In this document: one piece after another, positions 1,632-22,883 of the stretch
How positions within the stretch are numbered: the first letter of the stretch is position 1
Layout: every line of letters begins with the position of its first letter
Origin: an uncultured Lentisphaeria bacterium
GTDB taxonomy: Bacteria > Verrucomicrobiota > Lentisphaeria > JABSQK01 > JAJFLO01
Direction: 5' to 3'
NCBI GenBank assembly: GCA_951812855.1
Contig: CATOSW010000002.1
Location: forward strand, 1 to 22,883
Length of the DNA: 22,883 nt
Position numbers and translations under genes: made by a program
The notes under the pieces: generated by a model
The model's input: the letters and a program-made list of their open reading frames with translations, nothing else
What the model was told of the DNA's origin: nothing
Databases searched by the model: none

Positions 1632-1678
1632 GTGTTGTTATAAAAATATTAACCCGCCGCAGTGGCGGGTAACAACAC
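1632..1678 (+). other. Two-tier GC-rich stem-loop in the nad2-nad5 spacer
   Basis: Outer stem gtgttgtt (1632-1639) pairs with aacaacac (1671-1678). Inner stem acccgcc (1652-1658) pairs with ggcgggt (1664-1670), loop gcagt. A 12-nt one-sided internal loop sits at 1640-1651. Second copy at 21892..21938. Confidence 0.75.
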
Positions 1679-3619: not shown

Positions 3620-3623
3620 AAGG

Positions 3624-3646
3624 GGGGTACAACTGTACTCTACCCC
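3624..3646 (+). other. Stem-loop 5 nt after the nad5 stop
   Basis: ggggta (3624-3629) pairs with tacccc (3641-3646). 11-nt loop. Confidence 0.55.
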
Positions 3647-3650
3647 ATAA

Positions 3651-3724: not shown

Positions 3725-4894
3725 ATGACAAGGGCTTTTAGAAAAGAAAATCCTGTCCTATCCATAGTCAATGAAACATTTATAGATGTACCTTCGCCCT
3801 CAAATATAAGTTATTTATGAAATTTTGGATCAACGTTAGGTATTTGCTTGATTATACAAATAGTAACAGGAATATTTTTAGCAATGCATTATTGCCCTGA
3901 AACAGATCTAGCTTTTGCCTCTGTTGCACACATTATGCGAGATGTAAATTATGGGTTTGTATTAAAAGCTATACACGCTAACGGAGCCTCTATATTCTTT
4001 TTATGCGCATATATGCACATAGGGAGAGGACTATACTACGGAAGTTATAGCAGAGAAATGGTGTGAAATATCGGAATAGTAATATTTTTATTAATGATGG
4101 CCACAGCCTTTATTGGTTATGTATTGCCTTGGGGTCAAATGTCTTTTTGAGCTGCTACGGTAATAACTAATTTCTTATCAGCTATTCCATATGTAGGGAA
4201 TGATATAGTTGAATGAGTTTGAGGTGGCTATAGTGTGTCTAATGCTACATTAAACCGATTTTACAGTCTTCATTATTTATTACCTTTTATATTAGCTGCA
4301 TTAGCCTTAATACATATATTTCTTTTACACGAAGAGGGTTCTAATAATCCAATAGGGGTAAGGGGTGATATCGATGTAATACCTTTTCATCCTTATTATA
4401 CTTTTAAGGACTTATATGGTTGAATATTAATGGTTATATTGTTAACAGTTCTTGTGTTCTTCGCACCAAATTTATTAGGAGACGCAGAAAACTTTAAACA
4501 AGCCAATCCTTTAGTAACCCCTGTCCACATACGACCAGAGTGGTATTTTTTATTTGCCTATGCAATATTACGTTCTATACCTAATAAGCTGGGTGGTGTA
4601 TTAGCCTTGTTCGCAAGTATTTTAATTCTTTTCCTTTTACCTGTACTACATAAAAGTCTTCTTAGAGGATTAACTTTTAGACCACTTGGAAAATTATTCT
4701 TTTGAATATTTGTGGCCAACTTTTTAGTACTAACTTGAATAGGTGGTGAACCTGTTGAAGACCCGTATGTTTTAATAGGACAAATATCTTCAATAATATA
4801 TTTTGCCTACTTTTTAATAATTACTCCACTAGTGGGATACCTGGAAAATAAGCTGTTATTCCAGCGAACTACTGGTGGGGTAGTTGCACATTAG
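3725..4894 (+). CDS. cob: Apocytochrome b
   Basis: ATG at 3725, TAG at 4892-4894. Frame 2 joins ORFs 3848, 4235 and 4430 via TGA=Trp. Motifs [36 protein letters not shown]. 389 aa. Confidence 0.96.
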
Positions 4895-5524: not shown

Positions 5525-5542
5525 ATTAGCGGGCCCGCTAAT
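5525..5542 (-). other. Perfect 18-bp GC-cored palindrome between the nad3 stop and trnR
   Basis: attagcgggcccgctaat is its own reverse complement. It lies 15 nt downstream of the nad3 TAA on the minus strand. Confidence 0.8.
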
Positions 5543-5556
5543 TAGACCCTTAGTGG

Positions 5557-8400: not shown

Positions 8401-8406
8401 TAACAA

Positions 8407-8424
8407 GGAGGCTCATTGAGCTCC
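8407..8424 (-). other. Stem-loop downstream of atp9
   Basis: ggag-g-ctc / gag-ctcc (7 bp with one bulged G, loop att). It lies 42 nt after the atp9 TAA on the minus strand. Confidence 0.45.
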
Positions 8425-8465
8425 TAAATTACAAAAGATATTAAGCATTCTTTATTACCTAGAAG

Positions 8466-8755: not shown

Positions 8756-8828
8756 AGCCTTTAGTAGGAATTGAACCCACACTATTTTACTTACAAGGTA
8801 AATGCTCTACCAATTGAGCTATAAAGGC
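8756..8828 (-). tRNA. trnT: tRNA-Thr (anticodon UGU), copy 1
   Basis: Reverse complement: acceptor gccttta/taaaggc, D-arm gctc-aattggta-gagc, anticodon stem tttac/gtaaa, loop cttgtaa, T-arm gtggg-ttcaatt-cctac. Confidence 0.92.
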
Positions 8829-10105
<1,277 letters not shown>

Positions 10106-10149
10106 TTGGTAATATTGGAATTGAACCAATACAATTAACCCCGTTACCA
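10106..10149 (-). ncRNA. Truncated tRNA-like element (T-arm plus acceptor helix only) abutting the rns 5' end
   Basis: Reverse complement: tggtaac-ggggttaattgt-attgg-ttcaatt-ccaat-attacca-a. The T-arm is perfect and the acceptor helix has 6 bp, but there are no D or anticodon arms. An alternative 5' strand ggcaata (to 10166) would overlap trnF by 4 nt. Too short for a cloverleaf in the 57 nt available. Confidence 0.45.
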
Positions 10150-10162
10150 TAAAATTCACTAT

Positions 10163-10235
10163 TGCCCAGGATTGGACTCGAACCAACAATCTAAACATTT
10201 TCAGTGTTACGCTCAACCAATTAAGCTGCCTGTGC
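10163..10235 (-). tRNA. trnF: tRNA-Phe (anticodon GAA)
   Basis: Reverse complement: acceptor gcacagg/cctgggc (one A:G mismatch), D-arm gctt-aattggtt-gagc, anticodon loop ctgaaaa, T-arm gttgg-ttcgagt-ccaat. Confidence 0.85.
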
Positions 10236-10301: not shown

Positions 10302-10338
10302 ATTGATGGGGGTACCTTTATTTAACTCCCCCATCAAT
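10302..10338 (-). other. Perfect 11-bp stem-loop enclosing the cox3 stop codon
   Basis: attgatggggg (10302-10312) pairs with cccccatcaat (10328-10338). The 15-nt loop contains the cox3 TAA (10322-10324). Confidence 0.8.
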
Positions 10339-11107
10339 ATATGCAAACATAAAGAAACAATCAAACTACATCCACAAAATGTCAATATCAGGCTGAGGCC
10401 TCAAATCCAAAGTGATGGTGTCGGGTTAATTGGTATGCTATCAATCTTACTAAACATACCATTAAAAATGTTGTTCCGATTATTACATGGAGACCATGAA
10501 AGCCTGTGGCTACGAAGAAAGTTGAACCATATACTGAGTCTGATATAGCAAAAGGAGCCTCATAATACTCCATTGCTTGTAAACTTGTAAATAATATACC
10601 TAATAATACAGTTAATGTTAACCCTATTATTGCTTCTTTTCTTTTACCACTAATAATACCATGATGAGCTCAAGTTACAGTTGCCCCTGAACTTAATAAA
10701 ACAGCTGTATTTAATAAAGGAACAGAAAATGGGTTCAATACGTCAACTCCCTTAGGTGGTCAAACTGCTCCTATTTCTATAGCAGGTGCTAAGCTACTAT
10801 GAAAGAAGGCTCAAAAAAACGAAAAGAAAAAACAAACTTCTGAAATTATGAATAAGATCATTCCATACTTTAATCCTTGTTTTACTATTAATGTGTGGTG
10901 TCCTTGAAAAGTAGACTCTCTAATTACATCTCGCCATCATACGATCATTGTAAACCCTAATGTAGTTAACCCTAAAAGTACTACTCAAGCTTGATTATAA
11001 TGAAAATACATTACAGCCCCAATAGTAGTAAATAAAGCTCCACAACCACCTATATAGGGCCATGGGCTTGGATCTACTAAGTGATAAGGATGATATTGAT
11101 GTGACAT
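10322..11107 (-). CDS. cox3: Cytochrome c oxidase subunit 3
   Basis: ATG at 11107-11105 ([17 protein letters not shown]...). I checked the frame codon by codon and found only TGA=Trp. The end reads ...[22 protein letters not shown], then TAA at 10324-10322. 261 aa. Confidence 0.96.
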
Positions 11108-11108
11108 T

Positions 11109-11165
11109 TATCGACTGTGAGATTTGAACTCACTTAACCAAAGAAATAAAAAATTTTTAGTCGAT
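11109..11165 (-). ncRNA. Truncated tRNA-like element (acceptor, possible D-arm and T-arm; no anticodon arm) abutting the cox3 start
   Basis: Reverse complement: atcgact-aa-aaat-ttttt-attt-ctttggttaa-gtgag-ttcaaat-ctcac-agtcgat-a. The 7-bp acceptor and 5-bp T-arm with a TTCAAAT loop are both perfect. 57 nt. No 17-nt window folds as an anticodon arm. The 3' end lies 1 nt from the cox3 ATG. Confidence 0.55.
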
Positions 11166-11173
11166 TTTATTAA

Positions 11174-11246
11174 AACATCCAGCAGGAATTGAACCTACAA
11201 CCATTTACTTAGAAGGTAAATGCTCTACCAATTGAGCTATGGGTGT
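11174..11246 (-). tRNA. trnR: tRNA-Arg (anticodon UCU)
   Basis: Reverse complement: acceptor acaccca/tggatgt (one C:A mismatch), D-arm gctc-aattggta-gagc, anticodon stem tttac/gtaaa, loop cttctaa, T-arm gtagg-ttcaatt-cctgc. Confidence 0.88.
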
Positions 11247-11250
11247 TTGG

Positions 11251-11272
11251 GGCGCCGATTTAATCCGTCGCC
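11251..11272 (-). other. Imperfect GC-rich stem-loop between the atp6 stop and trnR(UCU)
   Basis: ggcg-c-cg (11251-11257) pairs with cg-t-cgcc (11266-11272). 6 bp with one mismatch. Confidence 0.4.
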
Positions 11273-11290
11273 TATATGGTGTGTAATAAA

Positions 11291-12028
11291 TTAATGTAAT
11301 GCTACTGTATCCCCTAAATAAATTGTCGTTAACAAACAAAACACATAGGCCTGTATTACAGCTACAGCCATCTCTAAAAGTGTAATAAATATCATTATCA
11401 GCATAGGAAATACACTTAAAAGAGCAAGTCCATTAGTTAACATATCAAAAGTAAAGCCCGATAATATTGCAAATAAAAGGTGTCCTGCTGATAAATTTGC
11501 TGCTAGTCGAACTCCTAATGAAATAGCTCGAGATAAATAACTAATTGTCTCAATTAGCACTAAAAAGGGAGCTAAAACTAATGGCGCACCTCCTGGCACA
11601 AATAAACTCATAAAGTTTGCTCTAAACTTAAATAACCCAATTATTGTAACTCCTATTAGTATTGACAATGATAAACCAAAAGTTACTATTATGTGTACTG
11701 TTGGTGTAAAGACATAAGGGAATAACCCAAAAACATTCAATAATACAATAAAAATAAAGAGACATAGTACAAATGGGAAATATTTAGCCCCCTCTTTGCC
11801 TAAGTTATCTCTTACCATTGTACGGATAGCTGAGTGCATTAATTCCATAATTAATTGTCATCTTGTTGGTATAATTTTTTCCCCCTTAAACAATAATCAA
11901 AACACAGTAATTACAGATAACATCATTAATGATGAATTAGTAAAACTTACTGCGAAGTCCCCTAAAAATGGGGCTCGTATTGTTATTAAACTAACAATAT
12001 TAAACTGATCAAAATATGCTGCTGTCAT
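11291..12028 (-). CDS. atp6: ATP synthase F0 subunit a (subunit 6)
   Basis: ATG at 12028-12026 (MTAAYFDQFNIV...). The frame is joined to ORF 11291..11848 through two TGA=Trp codons and was checked codon by codon. TAA at 11293-11291. 245 aa. Confidence 0.95.
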
Positions 12029-12230: not shown

Positions 12231-12233
12231 TTA

Positions 12234-12305
12234 TAGGTGTTGAAAGGATCGAACTTCCGACCATTGTGGTGTAAACACAACACTCTACCGCTGAGTTAAA
12301 CTCCT
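12234..12305 (-). tRNA. trnV: tRNA-Val (anticodon UAC), minus-strand copy
   Basis: The reverse complement matches the plus copy at 16322..16393 at 70 of 72 positions. Anticodon loop tttacac. Acceptor aggagtt/aacacct has an A:A mismatch at 4:69. Confidence 0.88.
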
Positions 12306-12355
12306 AATTTCTCCACATAATCAATATATTTCATACCTTGTAAATAATTGTTATT

Positions 12356-12428
12356 AGCCTTTAGTAGGAATTGAACCCACACTATTTTACTTACAAGGTA
12401 AATGCTCTACCAATTAAGCTATAAAGGC
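12356..12428 (-). tRNA. trnT: tRNA-Thr (anticodon UGU), copy 2
   Basis: Identical to 8756..8828 except A12416 versus G8816, which changes a D-stem C:G pair to U:G. The offset is exactly 3,600 bp. Confidence 0.9.
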
Positions 12429-12437
12429 TTGATATCA

Positions 12438-12456
12438 GCGTACTTTTTTAGTACGC
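12438..12456 (-). other. Stem-loop between the nad1 stop and trnT copy 2
   Basis: gcgtac (12438-12443) pairs with gtacgc (12451-12456). Loop tttttta. Confidence 0.55.
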
Positions 12457-12473
12457 CGCAATTATTCGTTTAT

Positions 12474-16281: not shown

Positions 16282-16291
16282 TTATACGTTG

Positions 16292-16308
16292 GGCCCCCTA
16301 ATGGGGCC
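16292..16308 (+). other. GC-rich stem-loop between the cox2 stop and trnV
   Basis: ggcccc (16292-16297) pairs with ggggcc (16303-16308). Loop ctaat. Confidence 0.6.
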
Positions 16309-16321
16309 TGTGCAAGAAATT

Positions 16322-16393
16322 AGGTGTTTAACTCAGTGGTAGAGTGTTGTGTTTACACCACAATGGTCGGAAGTTCGATCCTTTCAACACCTA
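16322..16393 (+). tRNA. trnV: tRNA-Val (anticodon UAC), plus-strand copy
   Basis: Acceptor aggtgtt/aacacct (perfect), D-arm actc-agtggta-gagt, anticodon stem ttgtg/cacaa, loop tttacac, T-arm ggaag-ttcgatc-ctttc. Confidence 0.93.
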
Positions 16394-18897
16394 TAAAAGT
16401 TAGTATTAACGAGTAACGAATGGATGACTAGGTTGTTCCAAATGGACGTAAAAAAAAACGAAATGTCGACTATAAGAAATTGTGAATGTCGAATATCCAC
16501 ACGGGAAACCAATAAAAAGTAACCCTGGGAACTGAAACATCTTAGTACCAGGAGGAAAAGAAATCAAGCGAGATTCCGTAAGTAGCGGCGAGCGAAAGCG
16601 GATTTTTAGATAGATCAAAATCCAAAGAGGGTATGAGTCCCGTAGATCTATCCTAAAGTCTTTATAGTAGAACTATTTGAAGATAGGTGAATCACACATC
16701 TAAGACTAAATATTGGAACAATCCGATAGTGAACAAGTACTGTGAAGGAAAGTTGAAAGAGAGTAAATATCCTAAAGCCCTAGAGGTAAATGGATATGAA
16801 GTGAAACAGAGCCTGAAATTCGTTAACTTACAAGCAGTGTGTAAACACGTACCTTTTGTATAATGGGTTCGCGAGAATAAGATTTGGCAAACTTAAGTTG
16901 ATAAACGAAGGTGTAGCGAAAGCAAGTTTTAATAGAGCGAAACATTTCAGTCAAATTTAACCCGAAACCAAGTGATCTAGTCATGGACAGTTTGAAGCTA
17001 ATTTAACAGTTAGTGAAGGAACGAACCGGTGATTGTAGCAAAAATCTCGGATGATCTGTGACTAGCAGTGAAATGCTAATCGAACTTGGAAATAGCTGGT
17101 TTTCTGCGAAATCTATATAAGTAGAGCATCATACATTATTCTTACATTGTAAAGCACTAGATGGTGTTGGAGGCACTAAGCCGGCCACATCAACTAAACT
17201 CTGAATGTGGAAGAATTTAAGTATGGTAGACAGACAATAGGCGACCAGGTCTATTGTCGAGAGGGGAACAGCCCAGATCAGAAGTTAAGGTCACGAAAAA
17301 ACTCTAAGTGTAAAAGGGAATCTATCAATTAAGACAATGAGGAAGTAGGCTTGGAGCCAGCCATCTTTGTAAGATTACGTAACAGTTCACTCAATGAATT
17401 TATAGATCCCAAAAATTAAGGTGGCTTAAGTTTTAACCGAAACTCTGAATAATGTATATGGTAGCAGAACGTACTGTATAAAACTAGCGAAAGCGTGTAT
17501 CAGTAGTGATAATGCGAACATGAGTAAAAAACAGTGTGAGAAACACTGATCACCGCCTAAGGGTTCCAATTAAAGGGTAATCCTAATTGGGTTAGACAGC
17601 CCCTAAGAGACACTGCCAAAGCAAATTCTTAATGGGTTATCCAATAATCTACGCTCTAATGGGCCAAGAAATAATTATTGGATGAGGACTGTACTATAAA
17701 CTGACTCAAGTGGGCGTAAAGTGATGGTAAAATTTATCTTAAGGAACTCGGCAAAATAACCCCGTAAGTTCGCAAGAAGGGGTACCAACTTAATCCCGTA
17801 ATCAATCGTGGATTAAATGGTCGCAGAAAAGAGGGAGTGCCGACTGTTTACCAAAAACACAGCTTCCAGCAAATATTAGAAATAGTAGTATTGGAGGTGA
17901 GGCCTGCCCAATGATTGTATCCAAAACCAAGTGGTGATTAAGCTATTTGGATAAGGACAATTAAATGGCCGCGGTAAAACTGACCGTGATAATGTAGCGC
18001 AATCAATAGCCAATTAATTGTTGGCAAGTATGAATGGCGTAACGAGTGCTCCACTGTCTCAAGATAAAAACCAATGAAATTGAATTCGTAGTGAAGATGC
18101 TACGTACAAATTGTTAGACGAGAAGACCCCATTGAGCTTTACTGGAAACTTATACTGTTCACATCAAATTAATTGTATTATTGGTGGGAAGAGTGTATAA
18201 ACATTCTAAAACCACTCTTTAATTTTGAGGGGGACTTAGACGGCAAAACCGACGAAACGTGTAAGTCAGACAGTTTGGTTGGGGCGACCGCCTTCTAAAA
18301 AGTAACGAAGGCGTACACAGGGTAAAGATATAATAGTATAAAGCCTGACTGTAAAGATGACAATCTGAGCAGGGCCTATATGGGCGGTTATAATGACCCG
18401 TTAATATAGAGTGAAATAGTTAACGATCAACGGATAAAAGTTACCATGGGGATAACAGCGTAATATCGTTCAAGAGTTCATATCGACGACGATGTTTGCG
18501 ACCTCGATGTTGAATTGCGGTATCCTGGAGGTGCAGCCGTTTCCAAGGGTTGGACTGTTCGTCCATTAAAACCGTACATGATTTGAGTTCAGTGCATCGT
18601 GAGATAGCACGGTTTCTATCTACAATTTGTAAAGGAAACATTATATATATTATCTTCTAGTACGAAAGGACCGAAGGATAATCGTCCACTGGTGTACCAA
18701 TTGTAATTACATGTTGGGTAGCTACGACGAAAAGTATAATCGCTGAATGCATCTAAAGCGAGAAGACTAATATAATTTTTTGTTTCCGTCGTTTAACGAC
18801 TCAGGGCCGTTCAAGATAAGGACGTTAATAGGATCTGTGTGTGAGCTACGGCAACGTAGTCCGCTTAAGATTACTAATGCCCGGCATACTGATTTTT
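16394..18897 (+). rRNA. rnl: Large-subunit (16S/23S-like) ribosomal RNA; ends approximate
   Basis: Conserved LSU blocks are present: gggaactgaaacatcttagtaccaggaggaaaagaaatcaagcgagattccgtaagtagcggcgagcgaaa (5' domain), gacggaaagaccc-like gacgagaagaccccattgagctttactg, the peptidyl-transferase region ggataacagcgtaatatcg...cgatgtttgcgacctcgatgttgaattg, and a 3' end ...gattactaatgcccgg. Confidence 0.92.
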
Positions 18898-18903
18898 TCA
18901 AGC

Positions 18904-18924
18904 CCGTCCGCTTGCCGCGGGCGG
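18904..18924 (+). other. GC-rich stem-loop between the rnl 3' end and tatC
   Basis: ccgtccgc (18904-18911) pairs with gcgggcgg (18917-18924), 8 bp including one G:U. Loop ttgcc. Confidence 0.7.
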
Positions 18925-18939
18925 AAGTTTTAAGATAGT

Positions 18940-19668
18940 TTGACTAGACATTTAAATGAATTAAAGTTAAGAGGAATTTATTTAATTTTAGGTTTTATAA
19001 TAACAATAGTTATAGGTTATAATTATTGTGAAGAAATAATATTTTTAGTTTTTTATTTAAATTCTATGAATGATGAAATTCAATTAAAACTAATTTTGAC
19101 CAATGTATATGAAGGGTTATTTTCTTATTTATTAATCTCTTGTGGTCTTGCTTTTTTTGTAATGATACCTATAATTATTTTTCAATTAATTTTATTTATA
19201 GCTCCTGGTTATCATTACTATGAGTATAGAGTATTATTAAAATCTTTTTTATTGTGTATTATAACTTATTTATTAACTATTTACATTGGATATAGCTGAA
19301 TTAATCCGGTAATATTAAAATTTGTGGGAGGGTTCTCTTCTACTTATCCCCCCATAGAAGTTAATATTAAAGCGAGTGAGTTATCTAATTATTTAATAAA
19401 ATTAACTGGCTTAATCGTATGTATGGGTATTATAATAACTTTATTATGATTTGCTCCTTCTTTTATGCCCTCACGTTTTATAATTAAACACTGATGGATA
19501 AGACCTACAATAATTATAGCAAGTCTGATGATAGGAGCCATTTTATCTCCATCGGATATAATCATTCAATGTTTAATCGCTGCACCTATTTATTGTTTTT
19601 TTGAAATCTGACTATTTTTATTTTTATTGAAAGACCAGTATAATAAAAGGAATAACCCCACTAAATAA
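18940..19668 (+). CDS. tatC: Twin-arginine translocase subunit C (TatC/MttB) homologue, non-ATG (TTG) start inferred
   Basis: ORF 18940..19299 continues through four TGA=Trp codons to TAA (19666-19668). 242 aa and polytopic. The N-terminus HLNELKLRGIY resembles the bacterial TatC HLxELRxRL motif. The C-terminal ILSPSDIIIQCLIAAPIYCFFEI resembles the LTPPDVxSQ...P...FE motif. TAA at 18931 lies upstream in frame, and the first in-frame ATG is about 42 codons downstream. Confidence 0.85.
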
Positions 19669-20250: not shown

Positions 20251-20262
20251 ATTACAAGACTA

Positions 20263-20333
20263 GCACGCATAGTTTAACGGTAAAATGGTTGACTTCCAAT
20301 CAGCGGTTGTGGGTTCAATTCCCACTGTGTGTA
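20263..20333 (+). tRNA. trnG: tRNA-Gly (UCC); same locus as 3..73
   Basis: Identical to 3..73 (offset 20,260). Confidence 0.9.
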
Positions 20334-20353
20334 ACAAGTAATTTAATCCTTCA

Positions 20354-20424
20354 TGTAGAGTAGACTAATGGTTGGTCACTAGACTCATGATCTAGGTATG
20401 TAGGTTCGATTCCTACCTCTGCTT
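20354..20424 (+). tRNA. tRNA with CAU anticodon; same locus as 94..164
   Basis: Identical to 94..164 (offset 20,260). Confidence 0.85.
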
Positions 20425-20478
20425 TAACCCCACTCCTGTAATAATTTTAGGAGTGTTGAGTTTAAAGACAATAAAGAA

Positions 20479-21876
20479 ATGTATGAAGCTTTTTATCCAG
20501 AATTATTTCTAAGTCTAGCAGTGTTGGTCCTGGTTATCTATGGAGTTTATCAGCCAACATTAAAAACAGCAATAATAATTTTGTTGGTTACAGGATTAAT
20601 GGCCCTCCCTAACGAACAGTTTTTATTTTGAGAAGATAAGACGCTTGATCTAACAAACGGGCTTTTGACAATTAATAGTTGAATATCTATTACAAAATTA
20701 ATTATTATAGTAGGGTCTATTTCTATATTATTAATGTTGAAAGACACCAAAATTTCGGGACAAGCATCATTTGATTCCCCCGTTTTAATTTTAATTGTAA
20801 CATTGGGATCTGTGCTTTTAGTTTCATCAATTAATTGACTTTCTGTTTATTTGGCCATTGAATTACAAACTTTATCCTTATTTGTTTTAACCGCATTAAA
20901 AAGAGATAGTGCATACGGCGCTGAAGCCGGGCTTAAATATTTTGTCTTAGGGGCGTTATCATCCGGCCTATTTTTATTTGGATGTGCTTTACTTTATGGT
21001 TTAACCGGTGAAACAAGCGTACATGCTGGTGGACAAATATGTGCTCTTACATCAAATGGTGAGGTAGGAAAAATTCTTATAACAATTTCGTTATTATTTA
21101 AACTATCTGCTGCGCCATTCCATATGTGAGCCCCCGATGTATATGAGGGAGCACCAACAACAACAACCGCACTATTGGCTATAGTGCCAAAAGTTAGTGT
21201 GTTTGCTATTTTAGTTCAAATAGGACCAGTAGTTAATGTATTATTAGCAAGTGCAATACTATCTATGATATATGGAGCTATAGGGGCCTTAAATCAAACT
21301 AAAATTAAACGACTATTAGCATATAGTGGTATTGGTCACATGGGGTTTGTTCTTTTTGGTGTAACAATTGGTTCATTTGAAAGTATTCAAGCAAGCTTAA
21401 TATATATGATTATATATGTTATAATGTCTATATGTAGTTTTTCAATAATACTAACATTAGGATTATCTAAAAACTTAATAGTGGAGTTTAGCGGCCTTTC
21501 TAGGAGACATCCTGTTATGGCAGTAACCCTAGCTTTTACTTTTCTGTCTACAGCCGGAATCCCACCTTTAGCAGGGTTTTTTAGTAAGTGGTTAGTGTTA
21601 TTATGTGGAATATCCTCTCAATATTATTTAACTTCAATCATAGCCGTGCTTTGCTCCGTTATAGCGGGGGTATATTATGTAAGAATAGTAAAAATAATTT
21701 ACTTTCAAGCAGAATCTTCTCTTTTAATTTGAAAAGATGTACTTACAGGAGATAAAAGAGGAGAATTCAGAAGATCAATATTAATCGGATTATCACTATA
21801 TATAATACTATTCATAATGATATCTCCAAACCTGTTATTACAAATAGCACATGATGCTACGATGGGGCTATATTAA
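20479..21876 (+). CDS. nad2: NADH dehydrogenase subunit 2; same locus as 219..1616
   Basis: Identical to 219..1616 (offset 20,260). Confidence 0.93.
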
Positions 21877-21977
21877 TAATCTGTAAGGATAGTGTTGTTA
21901 TAAAAATATTAACCCGCCGCAGTGGCGGGTAACAACACGCCTTTGTATCAATAAAATTTTTGGTGAGAGAAAAAGAG

Positions 21978-22883
21978 ATGTATCTATTAGTATTATTTAT
22001 ACCATTATTAAGTGCTGCAATATCTGGTTTATTCGGAAGAAAAATTGGTGAAAAAGGTGCAGGTATTTTTACTTCAAGTAGTATAGTAATATCTTGAGTG
22101 TTATCAATGTTAATATTTTATGAAACAAATATTAATGCCTCTTCCACATATATAAAATTATGAAGATGATTCGATTCAGATTTATTAACTATTTATTTTG
22201 GCCTACAATTTGACGCCTTAACAGGCATAATGCTAGTTGTTGTTACTAGTGTTTCAGCCTTAGTTCATATTTATTCAACTGGCTACATGTCAGGAGATCC
22301 ACATATACCCAGATTTATGTCATATTTATCCTTATTTACTTTTTTTATGATTGTTTTAGTAACAAGTGATAATTATGTTCAATTATTTATAGGTTGAGAA
22401 GGTGTTGGTTTATGTTCTTATTTATTAATAAATTTTTGACTTACAAGAATCCAAGCTAATAAAGCAGCTATAAAAGCCATGTTGGTAAACAGAGTCGGAG
22501 ATATTGGATTAGTTTTGGGTATGTTTGCTATATTTAAAGAATTCGGAAGCTTAGAATTTTCAACAGTATTTAGTACGGTGAATGAAGTATCTCAACCTAA
22601 TAGCATAGCTTTAATATGTATATTATTACTTATTGGGGCAGTGGGTAAATCTGCTCAACTAGGTCTACATACTTGACTTCCAGATGCTATGGAAGGTCCA
22701 ACGCCTGTGTCGGCATTAATTCATGCTGCCACAATGGTTACAGCCGGGGTTTTTCTAATAATACGGTCTGGGCCTCTTTTCGAGGGTTCTCCTTTAGCAT
22801 TAACTGTTACAACAGTTGTAGGAGCCTTAACAGCCTTTTTTGCTGCCACGGTTGGATTAGTACAAAATGACTTAAAGAAAGTT
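21978..22883 (+). CDS. nad5: NADH dehydrogenase subunit 5, 5' part truncated by the window end; same locus as 1718..
   Basis: Identical to 1718..2623 (offset 20,260). Confidence 0.93.

Follow-up and report, generated by a model that had tools for sequence, protein, structure and literature searches.

Gene order and the tRNA-like element upstream of cox3

The window, that is, the whole stretch of 22,883 nt that was analysed, was the circular 20,260-bp mitochondrial DNA of the sponge Oscarella lobularis read past its origin. Bases 1-2623 were repeated exactly at 20261-22883, and the molecule was therefore circular. The product of its cox3 gene was identical to the O. lobularis entry YP_004123305.1, the usual mitochondrial protein genes were present (genetic code 4), and the rns and rnl genes were bacterial-like. 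Of the 29 cloverleaves that ARAGORN found across the window, two lay inside the circular overlap, which left 27 distinct tRNA genes; both trnT and both trnV copies were among the full cloverleaves. On the minus strand the order of the region of interest was atp6, trnR(ucu), a short tRNA-like element (element 1), cox3, trnF, and rns, and three other O. lobularis assembly contigs were identical over the entire 1.2-kb block. The features were as follows, all on the minus strand:

11291-12028, minus: atp6
11173-11247, minus: trnR(ucu), a full cloverleaf 8 nt upstream of element 1 (ARAGORN; Rfam 67.7 bits)
11109..11165, minus: element 1, a 57-nt tRNA-like minihelix (sequence, MFE fold, shuffle test)
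11165-11159, minus: acceptor 5' strand ATCGACT of element 1, perfect complement of 11110-11116
11158-11134, minus: 25-nt AU-rich linker AAAAATTTTTTATTTCTTTGGTTAA, in place of the D and anticodon arms
11133-11129, minus: T-stem GTGAG
11128-11122, minus: T-loop TTCAAAT, canonical T54-T55-C56-A57-A58
11121-11117, minus: T-stem CTCAC
11116-11110, minus: acceptor 3' strand AGTCGAT
11109-11105, minus: discriminator A11109, then A11108, then the cox3 ATG
10322-11107, minus: cox3, 261 aa, with ATG at 11107-11105 (ORF, genetic code 4)
10163-10235, minus: trnF
8823-10111, minus: rns (Rfam SSU position 1 at 10111)

A first-pass annotation of this DNA had described element 1 as a tRNA-like structure that lacked an anticodon arm and ended 1 nt before the cox3 start codon. 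Its 7-bp acceptor helix was stacked directly on the 5-bp T-stem, both of them perfect, and the helix, the T-stem, the TTCAAAT loop, the stacking and the discriminator were confirmed base for base. The same was true of the 25 nt between the acceptor 5' strand and the T-arm and of the single A (A11108) that separated the element from the ATG. The RNAfold minimum free energy structure coincided with the centroid and consisted of exactly the acceptor helix and the T-arm (-10.8 kcal/mol, z = -2.3). The nucleotides at tRNA positions 8-9 were AA, so that U8 was lacking.

A scan of both strands looked for perfect 7-bp helices on which a 5-bp stem, likewise perfect and capped by a 7-nt TTCNA loop, was stacked directly. 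The eight sites found in the genome were seven true tRNAs and element 1. Since this pattern was expected 0.0025 times per dinucleotide-shuffled genome, element 1 represented a real tRNA-type architecture.

The rest of a tRNA was missing. In a search of the linker for an anticodon arm, none of its 17-nt windows had five pairs; the O. lobularis candidates with four were AU-rich, had no U33/R37 features and lacked a counterpart in L001, the oscarellid contig considered below. The absence of an anticodon arm was thus borne out. A D-arm made of A and T only (AAAT-TTTTT-ATTT), which had also been proposed, did not hold up: the linker alone folded at 0 kcal/mol, no better than its shuffles, and the stem was absent in L001.

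Element 1 might nevertheless have been an odd decoding tRNA, e.g., a D-armless one with its anticodon arm hidden in the linker. ARAGORN in metazoan-mitochondrial mode with an 80% score threshold did report an 'mtRNA-Thr (ggt)' with exactly the boundaries of the element. However, at default thresholds the element was not called in either the standard or the metazoan-mitochondrial mode, a 301-nt search gave no match between it and the Rfam tRNA model RF00005 even at E <= 10, and the sole 4-bp arm candidates were those dismissed above. Moreover, the 27 canonical, bacterial-like cloverleaves already served all codon families, in agreement with the earlier statement that this was not a missing tRNA. 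We therefore considered a decoding function extremely improbable, and the data supported a tRNA-derived, non-decoding element that was redundant with the 27 cloverleaves. Other weak Rfam matches in the region (TtnuHACA5 with E = 0.017, snoU36a, osmY) were far under the gathering scores and were attributed to chance.

Conservation in Oscarellidae and a second element upstream of rns

Oscarellidae DNA could be retrieved for O. lobularis and for L001, a 2,551-nt Logan contig from SRR2835683 (RNA or DNA); the other eight species were represented by protein records only in the cox3/atp6 protein searches and cluster listings. The cox3 product of L001 differed by 3 aa from that of O. carmela, and its atp6 product clustered with the O. 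carmela, O. malakhovi, O. pearsei, and O. balibaloi proteins. An exact look-up of a 40-aa cox3 fragment (genetic code 11) gave no match, a scan of the JGI metagenomes with the cox3 start sequence gave three chance matches in unrelated DNA, scans of GTDB genomes returned nothing or alphaproteobacterial cox3 only, and a scan of IMG/VR for Oscarellidae DNA returned nothing.

L001 carried element 1 at the same location. The two sequences agreed at all 7 nt of the acceptor 5' strand and at all 26 nt running from the T-stem to the discriminator and the +1 A, so that none of the 33 positions in the helices, T-loop, discriminator and +1 site had changed. In contrast, 7 of the 25 linker positions differed, through four substitutions and a 3-nt deletion that left L001 with the 22-nt linker AAAGTTATATTTCCCTGGTTAA (Fisher p = 0.0016 for helices versus linker, a contrast inflated by the linker being a mutation-prone A/T run). 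The 3' part of the linker, TGGTTAA, was variable-loop-like and was conserved in L001. At four-fold sites of cox3 and atp6 the two sequences differed at 31/198 positions (15.7%), and at this rate the probability of no change in 33 sites was 0.0036. Overall coding divergence was modest (approximately 5.5%), and the adjacent trnR(ucu) had 7 differences in 73 nt. These comparisons provided evidence for purifying selection on the helices, the T-loop and the discriminator of element 1. The suggestion in the first-pass annotation that a processing-relevant half (acceptor, T-arm, discriminator) had been kept agreed well with this contrast. Conservation of the acceptor and the T-arm, which it had proposed to check together with compensatory changes, took the form of identity in L001; there was no covariation because the helices were invariant between the two Oscarellidae.

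A scan for T-arms then revealed a second element that the first-pass annotation had missed:

10149-10106, minus: element 2, a 44-nt minihelix between trnF and rns

T-arm-like hairpins outside tRNA genes numbered three, namely that of element 1, one antisense in cob, and one at 10130-10114 (minus strand). The last was the T-arm of element 2, which read TGGTAAC, a 12-nt linker GGGGTTAATTGT, ATTGG/TTCAATT/CCAAT, ATTACCA, and a discriminator A. Its acceptor had 6 of 7 pairs, and it possessed neither an anticodon arm nor a D-arm. The hairpin antisense inside cob (4748-4764, minus strand; GGGTC/TTCAACA/GGTTC) had no adjoining acceptor helix, and about one such hairpin per genome was expected by chance.

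Element 2 ended at the 5' end of rns. Homology to the plakinid rns started with AAG[G/A]CTTTGATTTTGGG (AAG[G/A]CTTTGA), directly after the element 2 discriminator. In the demosponge contig L090, a genuine trnF lay 4 nt before the conserved rns motif CTTTGG; because the spacing between discriminator and motif was the same for element 2, the stub filled a slot held elsewhere by a real tRNA. In L001, the helices and the loop of element 2 were identical and the linker carried three substitutions and an indel (12 versus 13 nt), that is, 0/32 changes in the conserved parts versus 4/13 in the linker. With both elements pooled, the contrast between helices and linkers reached p = 6e-6. A relaxed scan, which allowed G-U pairs and one acceptor mismatch, a linker of 5-35 nt and a TTCRA loop, returned elements 1 and 2 as the only minihelices outside tRNA genes. 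As a bare pattern element 2 was not significant (by chance, the relaxed criteria would yield 0.34 such sites per genome), and its credibility came from its position, strand and conservation. We also speculate that the GG conserved in the linker of each element might mimic G18 and G19 at the tRNA elbow.

Neither element was found in the plakinid and the two demosponges that were compared. The plakinid contig L002 had the order atp6, 42 nt, cox3, 41 nt, rns, with no tRNA, no tRNA-like structure and neither element at its 6.8-kb locus. The demosponge contigs L089 and L090 had atp6, trnR(ucu) and cox3 with cox3 leaders of 26 and 10 nt, and both elements were absent. Thus, among the loci examined, element 1 was confined to the two oscarellids. 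As a separate observation, L002 contained a short direct repeat, GAAAGTTTAAGA twice, at 3790-3835 (plus strand) just before the 5' end of rns.

The parentage of the elements was less clear. No parent tRNA could be named for element 1, for which the best candidate was trnY, whose match at 21/32 positions exceeded the mean by approximately 2.7 sd. Element 2 was nearest to trnI and trnK (24-25/32 positions), which was not decisive, and trnT and trnV were outside the seven closest tRNAs to either element. We rejected the idea that a remolded trnT copy had taken the place of an original trnR(ucu) surviving as element 1: the present trnR(ucu) is the ancestral one, sharing its acceptor stem (ACACCCA) and its position with demosponges. 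It was true that trnR(ucu) and the two trnT(ugu) genes (8756-8828 and 12355-12429, minus strand) had a near-identical D-arm and anticodon arm. Their common stretch was ATAGCT[C/T]AATTGGTAGAGCATTTACCTT[C/G]TAAGTAAA, in which the three genes differed only at the middle base of the anticodon and at a single D-arm position (C/T, in the second trnT copy). L089 and L090 showed this likeness too, and it was therefore old, which also spoke against such a displacement; the likeness fitted the clustering of trnT and trnR noted previously (PMC11886574). A further pair of near-identical genes, the trnV(uac) copies at 12233-12306 (minus strand) and 16321-16394 (plus strand), lay on opposite strands, and such an inverted pair flanks the large inversion of O. 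pearsei (PMC5593202).

A rival reading is that element 1 is a neutral relic. It would be the functionless, decaying remnant of a tRNA gene that was duplicated and suffered an internal deletion, and the apparent conservation of its helices would merely reflect how closely the two available species are related. Duplication, remolding and loss of the anticodon arm are documented for tRNAs in Oscarellidae (PMC3001884, PMC5593202), the low coding divergence and the absence from Plakinidae and demosponges agreed with such a history, and the neighbouring trnR(ucu) made element 1 dispensable as punctuation. However, neutral decay would have to leave all 33 positions intact at the four-fold-site rate while the linker changed, and the contrast between helix and linker was repeated independently in element 2. 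Moreover, the acceptor helix of element 1 was perfect and yet unlike that of any extant tRNA (at most 6/14 positions alike), which implied a long divergence during which complementarity was maintained. We therefore regarded a neutral relic as unlikely, while giving it some weight.

A candidate processing signal for the cox3 and rns 5' ends

The reading that we put forward is that element 1 is a tRNA-derived processing signal similar to the t-elements of plant mitochondria; in our judgement the chances of this are about even. A tRNA stub would have lost its D and anticodon arms while purifying selection retained the minihelix of the acceptor and the T-arm. In a minus-strand polycistronic transcript with atp6, trnR(ucu), element 1 and cox3, the RNA of the element would adopt the fold of the upper half of a tRNA. 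A cut by mitochondrial tRNase Z after the discriminator A11109, at a site predicted between 11109 and 11108, would then leave the released cox3 mRNA with a leader of 1 nt; RNase P might or might not make a further cut on the 5' side. Element 2 (10149-10106) would do the same for the 5' end of rns, with an rns start at approximately 10105. Both the cleavage at element 1 and the selection for that cleavage are inferred here. Somewhat more tentatively, oscarellid mitochondria might have at least two dedicated non-decoding minihelices that are selected solely for setting the 5' ends of cox3 and the SSU rRNA as tRNase Z punctuation.

Besides the non-chance architecture, the selective conservation in both elements and the proven precedent of the plant t-elements, two lines of evidence made a processing signal the best explanation, namely that real tRNAs of this genome shared the geometry at gene starts and that the conserved parts were the minimum needed by tRNase Z. 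Real tRNAs ended 1-3 nt before cob, atp8 and rnl in O. lobularis mtDNA. In particular, trnL(uag) ended at A3723, with a single A between it and the cob ATG, one trnV copy was followed by atp8 (MPQL...) after 2-3 nt, and the other by rnl after 2 nt. [quoted passage not shown] The conserved parts of element 1 equalled the former and matched the latter, and thus the tRNase Z half of the RNase P/tRNase Z punctuation suggested in the first-pass annotation fitted a published minimum substrate. The RNase P half was doubtful: PRORP1, a plant protein-only RNase P, cuts a substrate made of the acceptor and the T stem-loop more than 1000-fold slower than one that bears a D-arm (PMC4836652), and therefore a 5' cut and a discrete 57-nt RNA were uncertain.

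Several observations counted against a processing signal. The trnR(ucu) 8 nt upstream already provided a cut between atp6 and cox3, so that element 1 was not strictly needed as punctuation, and given that cut it would trim only approximately 66 nt of leader. Other genes of O. lobularis mtDNA had leaders of 17-62 nt, and thus a leaderless cox3 was not obviously required. In addition, Plakinidae and demosponges managed without either element.

It could also be proposed that element 1 encoded a stable non-decoding small RNA of approximately 57 nt, possibly CCA-added, with its own role, and that the processing of the mRNA was a side effect. A CCA-adding enzyme requires an acceptor, a T-arm and a discriminator, and element 1 kept all three. 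Conservation of similar tRNA-like genes without an anticodon is documented between O. pearsei and O. balibaloi (PMC5593202) as well as between Xestospongia and Ephydatia (PMC2444032, PMC11886574), and plant t-element RNAs accumulate and gain non-encoded C and A (PMC1920247). However, element 1 had no conserved D-arm, unlike the published Oscarella cases, and its linker, the sole part free to confer specificity, was the least conserved. Both elements were also placed precisely at the point where the next gene has its 5' end, which a free-standing gene would not require. A small RNA with its own role was in our view improbable.

Another possibility was a helix that stays uncleaved in the 5'-UTR of the cox3 mRNA, protecting its 5' end or modulating the initiation of translation. 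The acceptor 3' strand ended only 2 nt before the AUG, and conserved hairpins were common in the spacers of O. lobularis mtDNA. On the other hand, a generic hairpin needs no TTCAAAT T-loop, no coaxial 7 + 5 geometry and no discriminator, the other conserved hairpins were GC-rich, lacked T-loops and lay 3' of genes, and element 2 preceded an rRNA, which is not translated. This made a UTR structure quite improbable.

The hairpins in the spacers of this AT-rich genome were a subject in themselves. GC-rich hairpins, such as GGCGACGGATTAAATCGGCGCC at 11251-11272, were located almost exclusively downstream of protein and rRNA genes (nad2, nad5, nad3, atp9, atp6, nad1, cox2, rnl), and the leader spacers from a tRNA to a gene mostly lacked them. 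The spacers were:

1617-1717, 3620-3650, 16282-16320, 18898-18990, plus: GC-rich hairpin spacers
5525-5556, 8401-8465, 11248-11290, 12430-12473, minus: GC-rich hairpin spacers

This distribution suggested that the hairpins serve as a general signal for 3' ends, distinct from the tRNA-like elements. At the tRNA-free junction of nad2 and nad5 (1634-1676, plus strand) a bulged hairpin had a minihelix-like geometry, with a perfect 7-bp GTTGTTA/TAACAAC, a 12-nt 5' bulge and a stacked 5-bp CCCGC/GCGGG. Its 7-nt loop, CGCAGTG, was not a T-loop, and as approximately 0.4 perfect 7 + 5 structures with any loop were expected per shuffled genome (linkers of 15-62 nt), it could have arisen by chance. Finally, a perfect 11-bp inverted repeat, ATTGATGGGGG...CCCCCATCAAT, spanned the cox3 stop codon (10322-10324) at 10302-10338 on the minus strand. 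Both of its arms were identical in L001, and a possible role is to mark the cox3 3' end or to affect the stability of the mRNA.

Because elements 1 and 2 were conserved only in the parts read by tRNase Z, a processing signal makes specific predictions that are cheap to check in O. lobularis, a sponge already well established in the laboratory, namely RNA ends at 11108 and at approximately 10105. If these ends fail to appear, the elements would be slowly decaying tRNA relics. If a processing signal is the true explanation, the loss of decoding leaves selection on the processing role of a tRNA gene, gene boundaries in sponge mitogenomes could be annotated better, and the recurrence of anticodon-less tRNA-like genes in these genomes (O. 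pearsei, O. balibaloi, trnX) would be easier to explain.

Comparison with known systems

Elements 1 and 2 were unmentioned in the literature searched, which left out the original O. carmela paper (Wang & Lavrov 2007); anticodon-less tRNA-like structures at other Oscarella loci are already published. Namely, in the duplicated trnT of O. pearsei and O. balibaloi, and also in a trnV copy of O. balibaloi, the anticodon arm is replaced by a 9-nt loop (PMC5593202, Ereskovsky et al. 2017). Like our elements, these structures belong to the same family and genome type, keep the acceptor and T arms and are conserved between species. However, they retain a well-conserved D-arm and the normal positions of trnT and trnV, whereas elements 1 and 2 have neither. 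The linkers of the latter are 25/22 and 12/13 nt (O. lobularis/L001) rather than 9 nt, and the elements resemble neither trnT nor trnV.

The trnX of other sponges is likewise a mitochondrial tRNA-like structure with conserved arms and an anticodon arm that is incomplete or varies (Wang & Lavrov 2008, PMC2444032; Xestospongia, PMC11886574). By its published description, which was the basis of our comparison, it differs in being of full tRNA size and in its location, which in haplosclerid and spongillid demosponges is downstream of cox1.

The plant mitochondrial t-elements are tRNA-like structures without an anticodon stem-loop that are cut by RNase Z and PRORP to form mRNA ends (PMC1920247, PMC3790967, PMC4836652). 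They share with elements 1 and 2 the lack of decoding, the conserved T-arm and acceptor helix, and the location in polycistronic transcripts (PMC1920247, PMC3790967). The t-element search motif GGTTCRANYCC was matched at 11/11 positions by element 2 (GGTTCAATTCC) and at 9/11 by element 1 (AGTTCAAATCT). On the other hand, t-elements are usually approximately 70-75 nt long with a recognisable cloverleaf remnant, whereas elements 1 and 2 are 44-57 nt with no D-arm. The former occur in the large, sparsely punctuated genomes of angiosperms and the latter in a compact animal genome, where, unlike t-elements, each is found just downstream of a genuine tRNA. The ends of t-elements coincide with 5' or 3' ends of mRNAs, and those of elements 1 and 2, where cleavage is predicted, lie 1 nt before the cox3 ATG and at the point where rns homology starts.

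According to reviews, tRNA punctuation is not applicable to many non-bilaterian animals (PMC5633667). The mechanism proposed here would be the same as in classical tRNA punctuation (Ojala et al. 1981, as cited in PMC5633667), in which a tRNA-shaped RNA directs the endonucleolytic release of its neighbour, except that the mark would be something other than a functional tRNA. If so, the two elements would be an animal counterpart of the plant t-elements and a natural experiment that splits the processing of a tRNA from its decoding.
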